From assembly GCA_039815185.1 (NCBI GenBank), contig JBCBZT010000011.1, forward strand, positions 1 to 64,000: DNA of 64,000 nt, in the 5' to 3' direction. Made by a program: the position numbers and the translations under genes. Below are positions 61,652 to 64,000 of the stretch, piece by piece (the stretch's first letter is position 1; the number at the start of each line of letters is the position of its first letter). The notes below the pieces were generated by a model that worked only from the letters and a program-made list of their open reading frames with translations, had not been told where the DNA came from and did not search any database. Source of the DNA: Cyanobacteria bacterium P01_A01_bin.123. GTDB lineage: Bacteria; Cyanobacteriota; Cyanobacteriia; Phormidesmidales; Phormidesmidaceae.

Positions 61652-61654
61652 TTA

Positions 61655-61759
61655 TATAGCGCTGGCCAGATTGCTTGATGCACCTAGTGTCGCTGGGATG
61701 CTCAACACACAGGCAAATTGGCTCACCGTAGCACACAAAGCTTTGTGACTACGGCTATA
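61655..61759 (+). repeat. 105-bp dispersed structured repeat, copy 3 (intact TATAGC/GCTATA ends)
   Basis: Begins 3 bp after the stop of the Fur-family gene. Confidence 0.9.
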
Positions 61760-61844: not shown

Positions 61845-61857
61845 TTGCAGCAGCAGT

Positions 61858-62004
61858 GAGCCGGAAAACTCTTCGGAAACCCTACCAAGCTATCCGGCTC
61901 TGGTTTATTTTCGGAGGTCGTTGCCTTCCTCGCCGGAACAGATTGGACTCCCCAGTGTACGCTCGACCGAATCCCTCCGAGCAATTCTGGCAAGTTGGGA
62001 GTAC
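61858..62004 (-). ncRNA. Multi-helix element directly 3' of the putative DGR variable region
   Basis: Nested stems ACTCCC/GGGAGT and GCTCG/CGAGC, then GAGG/CCTC, then GAGCCGGA/TCCGGCTC. Confidence 0.5.
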
Positions 62005-63585
62005 TCACGCCAAACCGCAAACCACCCGAAAACCAACATCGTCGCAGCAATCGCCGGGATCGTTGTAGTAGCGAAAAGCAGACCGACAACCCGCCGGATT
62101 GAAGAGCCACGAACCACCGCGCAGCACACGAAGTTCACTATTTCCGCCCCTAATCCAGGCACTGCTATCACGGGGCGCACCCTGGTAATTTTCATGCCAA
62201 TGATCGGCACACCATTCCCAAACGTTGCCATGCATGTCGTGTAAGCCGAAGTCATTGGGCGAGAAACTGCCGACCTTGATCGTTTCTTCTCGATATCTAC
62301 CCTTAGCCCCAGCACCGTAGATGTAATTTCCGTGGTAGTTGGCTTGCTCGGGGGTGATCGTCTCGCCAACGTAAAACGGCGTTGTCGTGCCAGCCCGACA
62401 GACATATTCCCATTCGGCTTCGCTGGGCAGTCGATAGCGCTTATTGGTTTTGTGCGACAGGCGATCGCAAAACTCAACCGCATCATGCCAAGAAACCTGC
62501 TCAACGGGGCGATGATTTCCTTTAAAGTGAGACGGATCTGGATCCAGATCCGTCTCGATTTTGGACAGTTTTGTGGCCACACTCCACCATTGCGCTTGGG
62601 TGACCGCAAACTTCCCCATGAAAAAAGACTGAATTTCTACCCGATGCTGGGGGCCTTCGCGATCCTCGCGTTCAACCTCTTTGGCAGGGGAGCCCATGAT
62701 GAACAGATCACCGGGAATAGCCACCATGTCGAGTGTTCGGCCACTGCCTAAATCCTCCTGAAAATTCTGGTGATGGCTGGGCGGCTGCGTGGGCACAGAC
62801 CGTTTCACCGATGCGGGCTGTTTCAATGGGGGTGCCGATGGCGACAACACCTGCACCTTAGACAAGATCTCAAAGGCAAACGCACTGGCATGACGAGCCG
62901 CAATTTCTTGAGAGCCCTGTTGATCAGACGCTGTTTTGTGGTCAATCAGGTCAGAAATACCCCGAATCACCAACGCAGCCACCTGCTGATTCGCATGGAC
63001 AGCATCCAGAAAGCCAAAGCCTTCCATTTCAACCGCCAGGGCATCGCCATAGTACGATCGCAAAAACTGGAAGACCTCAGATTTTGTTGACGCCACCACT
63101 TTTTCGCCTGCCGCGATCGGCCCGACAAATGCTCTTGGTTGAGCAGACGGTTGAGACGTTAATCTCCTCAACCAATCCGATTTCCTGGCTTCGGCTTTAG
63201 CGCGTTGTTCCAGACGATAGGCACTAAGCCCCAGGGTAGGTCTAGGTCTGAATGTCTCCCCCGCTTTCCCCGATTCATAGCCATAAATTTTGGTGGAAGC
63301 GACCACATCCCCCAGCCGCACATCCTTAATGCCGCCAGCCACCCCGACGAAGAGAATAACATCGGGCTTGAAATGAGCGATTGCCCTTTCGGCTTCGGCT
63401 GCTGCCCCCGCATTGCCCGCTCCCACTTCAGCAATGCCCACATTCCAGGTCTGTCCATTGGCAGCAAACGTTCCCCGCTCGTAAATGGTTCCCTGGGGAT
63501 GGGTCTCTTCCTGGAGTGCATCCAGATGTATCCGCACGGCCAAGTATTCAACCTGTAGGGCAGTCAAGATTACGGCACGCGGCAT
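62005..63585 (-). CDS. PNP/Pfs (MTA/SAH nucleosidase-like) domain fused to an FGE-sulfatase (C-type lectin fold) domain; probable DGR target
   Basis: N-terminal ILTAL.VE, GAGN, FVGVAGG, GDVV, AVEMEG, IRGISD; C-terminal [41 protein letters not shown]. Confidence 0.9.
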
Positions 63586-63749
63586 GGGCTAATCTTCGAG
63601 CAGTGTAAATATCCACTATTGTGGCGATTCAAGGCCGATTTGCCCAGCATCTAGAGAACCGTCATAGCTTGCAGAAATTGGTTTGTCGCTCAGTTACCCC
63701 GCCACTCAGCCACAATGAAAATAGGTTCTCTAAATGTCTAGCCCTAATC

Positions 63750-64000
63750 ATGAGCGATAAAGACTCAACCCTCGAAATCCTGCTCGCCGAATACAACTGC
63801 CTCAAGTCAGAACAAGCCCAGCGGATTGGCTTTCGAGATAACCTCCTGTACGTCACCCTCGGCGTCTTTGGGGCCGTGGTCTCATTCGCCGTCTCCGATC
63901 CCGCCCACTACTACGCGCTGCTCGTGATCCCCTGGGTCTGCCTGATCCTCGGTTGGACCTACGTCGTCAACGACGAAAAGATTTCATCCATCGGTAGGTA
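63750..64000 (+). CDS. Integral membrane protein, truncated by the window end
   Basis: Open frame MSDKDSTLEILLAEYNCLKSEQAQRIGFRDNLLYVTLG...LGWTYVVNDEKISSIGR. Confidence 0.75.
   Translation, partial: MSDKDSTLEILLAEYNCLKSEQAQRIGFRDNLLYVTLGVFGAVVSFAVSDPAHYYALLVIPWVCLILGWTYVVNDEKISSIGR

Follow-up and report, generated by a model that had tools for sequence, protein, structure and literature searches.

A Probably Frozen DGR Target With an Immune-Clade Nucleosidase Domain and an Unannotated Membrane-Protein Partner in a Cyanobacterium

Introduction

The closest described counterparts of the locus presented here are the cyanobacterial DGR targets of the FGE/CLec type (clade 5E, Dore et al. 2024, PMC10907252; PMC7517822; PMC7159879; PMC8195603), which carry the same C-terminal CLec domain with a variable region (VR) of the RGGSW...GFRVVC type as well as an N-terminal effector domain. 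Orphan targets devoid of an RT, such as all3226, are on record, and RT-less targets as well as inactivated DGRs have been described (PMC7517822, PMC4143802, PMC5758913). In the main texts of PMC10907252 and PMC7517822, neither "PNP" nor "phosphorylase" appears (0 occurrences). Dore et al. 2024 (PMC10907252) state that none of the cellular CLec sensors of multicellular bacteria had been characterized experimentally. With respect to the mutagenic machinery, the spacer 3' of the template repeat (TR) in BPP-1 is folded, brings in RT-Avd and acts as primer for cDNA synthesis (PMC12875486).

A second group of relatives comprises the nucleosidases of the Cap17 clade, known from CBASS (Cap17), Detocs (DtcC), Avs and pAgo systems, of which Cap17 and DtcC cleave ATP (Rousset et al., bioRxiv 10.1101/2023.01.24.525353). 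Since FGE-S is named among the domains of example cassettes in the legend of Fig. 2B, the clade figure of this preprint, an association of PNP and FGE is not wholly new, while a linked four-helix membrane protein goes unmentioned in the accessible parts of the same work. Further points of comparison are the housekeeping MtnN/Pfs enzymes and the small helical membrane proteins of the 8xMP (PF24838) or DUF2270-like type.

The window, i.e., the whole stretch of DNA that was analyzed, covers 64,000 nucleotides of a cyanobacterial draft assembly (positions 1 to 64,000 of contig JBCBZT010000011.1, termed C6 below). Close to its end lies a gene that resembles the FGE/CLec targets in its C-terminal domain and VR, but has a PNP domain as effector with no NTPase or vWA domain in between; its DGR cassette is gone and the VR is joined to a TR spacer. 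With the Cap17-clade proteins it shares the Pfam domain, the tree group and the catalytic Asp, yet it lacks a cyclase, kinase or STAND module, its sensor being a DGR-written lectin fold. MtnN/Pfs enzymes are alike in fold and catalytic residues, from which the PNP domain differs in staying under the curated cut-offs, in falling outside the MtnN tree group and in being fused to a sensor. The neighboring gene encodes a small helical membrane protein as 8xMP genes do, but is itself without a Pfam or PADLOC match or a clear structural match. The locus is a genuine DGR target, very probably frozen by now, that combines an immune-clade nucleosidase with a membrane partner lacking annotation; the DGR target class itself is known, whereas the recurrent freezing by VR-spacer junctions and the linkage of PNP and membrane protein appear to be undescribed. 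The overall best explanation, to which we assign a rough probability of 0.65, is a sensor-effector module with a DGR-diversified, now frozen tip. Because a CLec sensor and an assayable enzyme are combined in one chain, ligand-dependent activation is directly testable.

The Fusion Protein and Its Nucleosidase Domain

The fusion gene and its parts are located as follows.
62005..63585, minus strand: PNP-FGE/CLec fusion gene, 526 aa (ORF call, Pfam and AF2 model)
62863..63576, minus strand: PNP (nucleosidase) domain placed in the immune clade, aa 4-241 (Pfam and tree)
62020..62730, minus strand: FGE-sulfatase/C-type-lectin-fold domain, aa 286-522 (Pfam, Foldseek)
62035..62121, minus strand: DGR variable region (VR), RGGSW...DDV (comparison with TRs and with an orthologue)

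Within the 526-aa ORF, Pfam recognizes two domains, PNP_UDP_1 (aa 4-241, E 5.5e-26) and FGE-sulfatase (aa 286-522, E 1.1e-54). The AlphaFold2 model (mean pLDDT 84.6) consists of two domains connected by a disordered linker (aa 248-271), and no transmembrane segment is predicted for the protein, whose hydropathy reaches 1.45 at most. In Foldseek searches, the lectin-fold domain is matched best by PvdO and by 2y3c, a DGR target of T. denticola, and also by FGE, while the PNP domain matches MTA/SAH nucleosidases. A preliminary description of the window had reported the ORF (62005..63585) along with individual codons, all of which reappear exactly upon re-reading of the sequence, and had proposed a sensor and an effector built into one chain; this build appears sound, PNP and FGE/CLec sharing one ORF and the PNP domain grouping with Cap17/DtcC-like sequences instead of MtnN. 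The combination constitutes a protein family, with about 30 full-length members among the best 120 matches listed, the named ones being cyanobacterial; queries with the PNP domain, the partner and the spacer had no match in a genome of the same genus (G001, 85% complete).

In a small tree of 25 PNP rows, from which DeoD, Udp and XapA were left out, the domain groups with CBASS TPALS-PNP-like, Detocs-like response-regulator-PNP and SAVED-PNP rows (support 100/98), apart from seven MtnN rows and one MTAP row, the Cap17-like and DtcC-like rows having been picked by gene context, not by identity to tested proteins, and both forming long branches. Residues E13, E186-M187-E188, R208, S211 and D212 align with active-site positions of E. 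coli MtnN; the catalytic residues E13, E188, R208 and D212 are kept. In addition, the domain carries substitutions common to the immune rows, M9 to L and F151 to V. HMM scores alone do not separate the immune and MtnN classes: the PADLOC CBASS effector profile yields 70.3 bits, the MtnN profile PRK05584 77.7 bits at a cut-off of 169, and a further curated MtnN profile 41.2 bits versus a cut-off of 73.8. The NCBIfam equivalog cut-offs for MtnN/Pfs are not reached by the domain, nor does it group with MtnN. Taken together, the sequence comparisons support its assignment to the immune, Cap17/DtcC-like nucleosidases and not to housekeeping MtnN.

Alternatively, the protein might be an enzyme of signaling or salvage that has a ligand-binding domain but plays no part in defense, its partner serving as transporter or export route for the released base. 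The best solved-sequence relatives are indeed MTA/SAH nucleosidases, the neighborhood is of a housekeeping kind, PNPase domains may generate a second messenger (Kaur et al. 2020, PMC7159879), and cyanobacterial DGR targets have been read as regulatory (Vallota-Eastman et al., PMC7517822). We nevertheless consider this reading unlikely in view of the position of the domain outside the MtnN rows together with its immune-row substitutions, the fusion of close homologues to TIR, SEFIR, NB-ARC/AAA, STAND, TPR, SAVED and SIR2-like domains (GUN4 also occurs), and the patchy distribution of this PNP clade, which is found in 24 of 173 family genomes. By analogy with the immune nucleosidases, a defense role of the module, probably against phages, is likely. 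Family membership suggests that a ligand of the CLec tip, probably a phage product, would switch on the PNP domain, which would then cleave adenine from ATP, dATP or a related nucleotide; that ATP is the actual substrate has, by the same analogy, an even chance.

PNP-fusion genes often stand in tandem with a second PNP copy of about 50% identity (L042:4553-6595, L047:9394-13566 and similar loci). The copy in L042, the one that was checked, is missing the catalytic residues. Such second copies may act as homotypic adaptors or inhibitors.

Past Writing of the Variable Region

The last codons of the gene had been taken for a DGR variable-region signature. With 11 TRs from relatives as reference for both the codon and the mismatch tests, nine of nine fusion-gene codons at conserved AAC/AAT positions of the TRs end in C or T, compared with 52% in the rest of the gene (binomial p=0.003). 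Of the A positions, 16 of 25 deviate from the TR consensus, versus 14 of 83 non-A positions (Fisher p=1.4e-5). The A content amounts to 9% in the VR and 23% in the remaining gene. A single variable codon, GCG, ends in G, and the TRs have codons of the GAG/AGG/GGG type at this position. These tests do not separate cleanly: the paralogues C108 (6/9 in the codon test, p=5e-4) and C124 (8/9, p=0.03) likewise score, the latter showing no sign of DGR flanks, while C39 lacks a signal in the codon and mismatch test and the EgtB-like FGE paralogue at C97:78264-79454, a negative control, has no VR signature (4/9 codons of the NNY type). Since the codon test also responds to protein constraint, as the scores of C124 and C108 illustrate, the codon pattern alone is only suggestive.

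Stronger evidence than the codons is provided by the spacer junction described below, by the divergence of an orthologue and by a homologue with a matching TR. P0002, the closest relative of the fusion protein (88% identical), differs at 16 of 24 VR residues versus 45 of 502 residues elsewhere when compared as protein (p=6e-11). In genome G002 (locus L225), a PNP-FGE gene directly behind a TR has a VR that departs from this TR at 12 of 28 A and 0 of 86 non-A positions, and because of this exact TR-VR pair, PNP-FGE fusions are genuine DGR targets. The L225 contig starts just before the TR, leaving the RT outside the view, and the active site of its PNP domain is degenerate.

That the codons ending in C or T merely reflect chance plus protein constraint in a gene that never was a DGR target could be argued from paralogue C124 with its 8/9 in the same test. 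Such a view conflicts with the concentration of the P0002 divergence in the VR, with the TR-VR pair of the homologous fusion in L225 and with the TR spacer fused to the stop codon, which scores 142.5 bits in a model that includes this very sequence and is 82% identical to an independent spacer; it is refuted by the spacer homology and left with next to no probability. The tip of the fusion gene, judged by these comparisons, is almost certainly a genuine DGR variable region written by past adenine-specific mutagenesis, as the preliminary description had recognized. An adenine-specific footprint and a DGR-derived flank, the two marks of a relic target, are both present at the locus, and the C-terminal CLec fold with VR that characterizes active targets is present in the fusion gene.

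Apparent Absence of the DGR Machinery

As reported previously, the window contains no RT, avd or template, and the same holds for all 133 contigs of the assembly (8.09 Mb in total; completeness 99.99%, contamination 5.99%). Neither BLAST nor an adenine-tolerant scan of all 133 contigs of the draft retrieved a TR, so that the template expected next to an RT and avd elsewhere in the genome did not appear; the best non-self match of the scan was the VR of a paralogue, which has 25 non-A mismatches over 104 nt. A DGR-class RT is likewise missing from the assembly: PF00078 detects three RTs, which relatives' DGR RTs match at only 24-25% identity. All three were rejected as DGR RT, one being a stop-interrupted group II intron-like enzyme and two being long non-DGR RTs, class labels that we presume from reading their sequences. 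The group II intron-like RT lies at C8:528-1850, where a TAG stop interrupts it. Genome-wide, no Avd exceeds the cut-off, the only Avd-like match reaching 26.5 bits versus a cut-off of 80, while a true Avd from the intact relative L028 scores 136 bits with the same profile. This sole candidate, at C6:115 kb, was discarded, as it scores as a TIGR02436 four-helix-bundle protein and resides in an acyl-CoA dehydrogenase/thiolase-like context. Given the fragmentation (133 contigs) and contamination (5.99%) of the draft, a DGR might have escaped assembly.

A TR Spacer Fused to the Stop Codon

Two elements meet at the 3' end of the fusion gene.
62005..62034, minus strand: constant 3' block common to VR and TR (IMH/IMH*-like), probable crossover zone (alignment; crossover position deduced)
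61854..62004, minus strand: orphan DGR-RNA 3' spacer, fused to the stop codon (homology, covariance model and structure)

The 150 nt past the stop codon are similar to relatives' TR spacers (identity up to 82%, the highest value being to an independent TR spacer). Seventeen such spacers have a common structure in which 27 of 40 pairs show compensatory change and 93% of the cells are paired, versus 28-46% in slid controls, the structure having been derived from the same 17-sequence alignment that scored it. By analogy, the element at 61854-62004 is taken to be the cyanobacterial counterpart of the BPP-1 spacer. The Rfam family RT-14 matches 61858-62003 with 34.7 bits, under its gathering score of 48.1; it was not adopted as a name for the spacer, as no gathering-level match was obtained in 11 loci including intact DGRs.

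The covariance model, whose training set included both spacers of this genome, finds exactly two spacers genome-wide (142.5 bits for the window copy), each fused to the VR of an FGE gene. The second one is joined to the VR of a vWA-FGE gene in a trypsin/MoxR/vWA locus on contig C130 (C130:19625-27700, L036), where Trypsin-like, MoxR-like and SAV_2336-vWA-FGE genes are followed by two FGE-only genes. Three genes of this locus bear VR signatures (9/9 NNY), the first VR being the spacer-fused one, and no avd, RT or TR lies between them within C130:19625-27700. Among the 27 variable positions of the three VRs, 19 fall into the 29 template-A columns and 8 outside, which is consistent with drift after loss. 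In the intact relatives L028 and L029, the order is target-avd-RT-TR-spacer-target.

A spacer survey of 150 family genomes, 68 of which hold a spacer, was based on the best 90 of 114 listed places and yielded 91 rows, of which 17 without a recognizable repeat end were dropped. The remaining 74 classifiable rows comprise 52 with TR and spacer plus a DGR RT in the fetched stretch, 15 with TR and spacer but no RT in the fetched stretch, and seven in which a mutated VR of an FGE gene is joined to the spacer (the window locus and six relatives). None of these seven junctions (0/7) has an RT or avd within flanks of 1.3-3 kb. Three further VR-spacer junctions occur among the named genomes (L055, L061 and L111). 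Moreover, a pyrimidine-rich flank with a GCGCGNAGCG-type motif follows all four ordinary targets examined (4/4), whereas both spacer-fused genes lack this flank (0/2), with the TR spacer in its place; the motif may represent a functional 3' cis element of targets.

Homology indicates that the ancestral locus was arranged as target(VR)-avd-RT-TR-spacer, with the RT rewriting the VR at template adenines. A crossover between the direct repeats VR and TR, within their common 3' block of about 30 nt, would subsequently have excised, as a loop, the flank belonging to the target together with avd, RT and TR, leaving the last VR variant joined to the TR spacer and the binder fixed. The crossover is placed in this constant block, as mutations in the VR reach its last AAY codon, and given the order target-avd-RT-TR-spacer in relatives, the machinery was probably lost through VR x TR recombination; the collapse is reconstructed from other loci, as the ancestral state of this exact locus was not recovered. 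Overall, loss of the machinery by this recombination is quite likely on sequence grounds.

A different origin of the junction would be the integration of an over-long RNA/cDNA or gene conversion from the TR, combined with a separate loss of the RT. DGR cDNA is covalently joined to spacer RNA in BPP-1 (PMC12875486), and loss of the RT with the TR kept is common (15/74 rows). However, all 16 of 16 conserved adenines are intact in the VR-joined spacer, in contrast to true VRs, where 13-19 of 25-27, i.e., about half or more, are lost; it is therefore not a product of mutagenic cDNA synthesis, which argues against cDNA read-through. RT or avd genes, moreover, are near none of the seven junction loci as opposed to 52 of 67 TR-borne spacers, and conversion should leave a donor TR-spacer, none of which was found in the genome. 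We consider an origin of this kind quite improbable compared with the VR x TR crossover.

The VR-spacer junction would be a specific, recurrent way of freezing a DGR target, of which no description surfaced in the literature searched (few subscription papers, no supplements). It provides a simple sequence mark of frozen DGR targets, loci that RT-anchored surveys miss, and the frozen VR variants are candidate selected binders. The preliminary description had mentioned neither the spacer remnant past the stop codon nor the membrane-protein gene at the edge of the window.

Several other loci (L025 on G037:C14, L027, L030, L199, L202 and L203) hold a TR with spacer and no RT or avd in the fetched stretch; L025 also has no target nearby. 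In L215 (G063:C40), an RT-bearing cassette, the 3' half of the TR looks mutagenized and five AAY codons remain, a picture that would fit conversion of the template by a VR.

The Probably Frozen State of the Binding Tip

Sequencing runs allow the present state of the junction to be viewed. Run X1, which may be the source of the assembly, contains a single 570-nt contig across VR and spacer that agrees with the window throughout (0 differences; depth 36.8, equal to that of the flanks). A 292-nt contig of run X2, which belongs to another study, extends over the spacer and into the VR, of which it includes the 3' 75 nt; it shows 1 difference at a depth of 3.4. Runs X3 and X4 have no listed piece over the VR. 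A-site-specific variation was not seen in the X1 and X2 contigs, the X2 depth being low and its VR cover partial. Because contigs drop rare variants, and because intact and deleted DGR variants coexist in one population (Dore et al., PMC10907252), this invariance is supportive, not final.

The VR had initially been thought to be diversified in trans, which would require a DGR missing from the assembly or confined to a sub-population. In cyanobacteria, DGRs are known to serve remote targets (PMC7517822, PMC4143802). In addition, the assembly is a draft, intact and deleted variants can coexist (PMC10907252), and the strong difference of the P0002 VR implies recent diversification. On the other hand, no TR, DGR RT or Avd was found in the assembly, and two different TRs would have to be missing, since the VRs on C6 and C130 differ at at least 25 non-A sites. 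The target-type 3' flank is gone, replaced by the spacer, the X1 contig is unbroken with 0 differences at depth 36.8, and the X2 contig of the second study is nearly unchanged (1/292 nt). Ongoing diversification in trans is thus not supported and appears very unlikely, and we regard it as highly probable that the binding tip is now frozen.

The Membrane-Protein Partner

Upstream of the fusion gene, the window ends within a second, divergent gene.
63586..63749, unstranded: short stretch between the head-to-head genes, containing conserved blocks (aligned to 12 homologous intergenic regions)
63750..64000, plus strand, continuing to C6:64301: 5' part of the partner gene, encoding a 183-aa four-helix membrane protein (model; no Pfam or PADLOC family)

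The partner gene (C6:63750-64301) starts 164 bp upstream of the fusion gene, and the region in between (63586..63749) is probably a shared divergent promoter. Its product has no Pfam or PADLOC match and is modeled as a four-helix bundle with hydrophobic segments (pLDDT 94), for which Foldseek gives no match at E<=0.001 and VIA-align yields matches up to Z 12 that are generic helical bundles. The family counts 845 representatives at 50% clustering and E<=0.001. Weak matches to PF24838 (best E 1.8e-4) occur in four of 108 partner homologues, and among named ESM Atlas clusters 8xMP comes nearest (0.80), kinship with which is a lead only.

The genomic linkage of the partner to PNP genes is tight. 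In the genome scan it accompanies 23 of 37 PNP-carrying loci and 0 of the FGE-only loci, and of the 24 family genomes with this PNP clade 23 hold it, compared with 40 of 173 family genomes overall. Both genes stand head-to-head within 400 bp in 14 of the 24 genomes and within 5 kb in 18, and in genomes without a close PNP homologue several partner genes adjoin a more distant PNP gene. Among 80 metagenome loci found by distant partner homologues, 55 contain an immune-clade PNP, a share that rises to 45 of the 48 loci of at least 5 kb versus 0/41 and 0/36 in two sets of control loci with the same minimum length (0/77), the 48 and 80 including redundant and related loci and thus not being independent counts. 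On plasmids, 7 of 8 partner matches lie within 5 kb of a PNP match, one of them in Streptomyces. As counter-cases, L044 and L225 have a PNP-FGE gene without a partner in the fetched stretch.

These data make a shared pathway of partner and PNP likely, and a functional partnership very probable. The linkage itself being observed, the four-helix membrane protein would act in the same pathway, most likely as downstream membrane effector or regulator; candidate roles are a pore, an immunity factor or a transporter. The arrangement suggests, at the level of sequence, that fusion gene and membrane partner form a two-gene defense module. More tentatively, the module could be a widespread one in which the nucleosidase product (adenine/ribose-triphosphate) or an oligomer gates the four-helix effector, while DGR self-excision locks a selected binder; if this were true, self-excision would be a bacterial counterpart of fixing a matured receptor and not random decay. 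A pair of PNP and membrane protein was not described in the literature searched (few subscription papers, no supplements), and the partner stands for a large unannotated family tightly linked to immune PNPs, a concrete new system.

On the Streptomyces plasmid NZ_CP059899.1 (L282:1019-5525), NUDIX, PNP, an unknown gene and a partner homologue are co-directional, extending the pairing outside cyanobacteria. In L141-L144 and L137, distant partner homologues lie directly upstream of PNP genes that carry a SIR2-like domain, in an apparent operon.

Genomic Neighborhood and a Dispersed Repeat

The locus lies outside any defense island, with fur among its neighbors; further neighbors are presumably purS/purQ and SPFH/NfeD-like genes. 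Some homologues elsewhere adjoin CBASS, BREX, AbiE or STAND genes, none of which occurs at this locus. One additional feature precedes the spacer.
61653..61759, unstranded: copy of a dispersed, MITE-like repeat of about 107 bp (BLAST; probably incidental)

An inverted copy, 89% alike, is found past the partner gene at C6:64507-64613, and the two copies bracket exactly the two-gene cassette. A composite transposon built from these inverted repeats was not adopted as an explanation because the repeat is dispersed genome-wide, the left-hand query giving 221 BLAST rows across the genome; the two copies are probably independent insertions.
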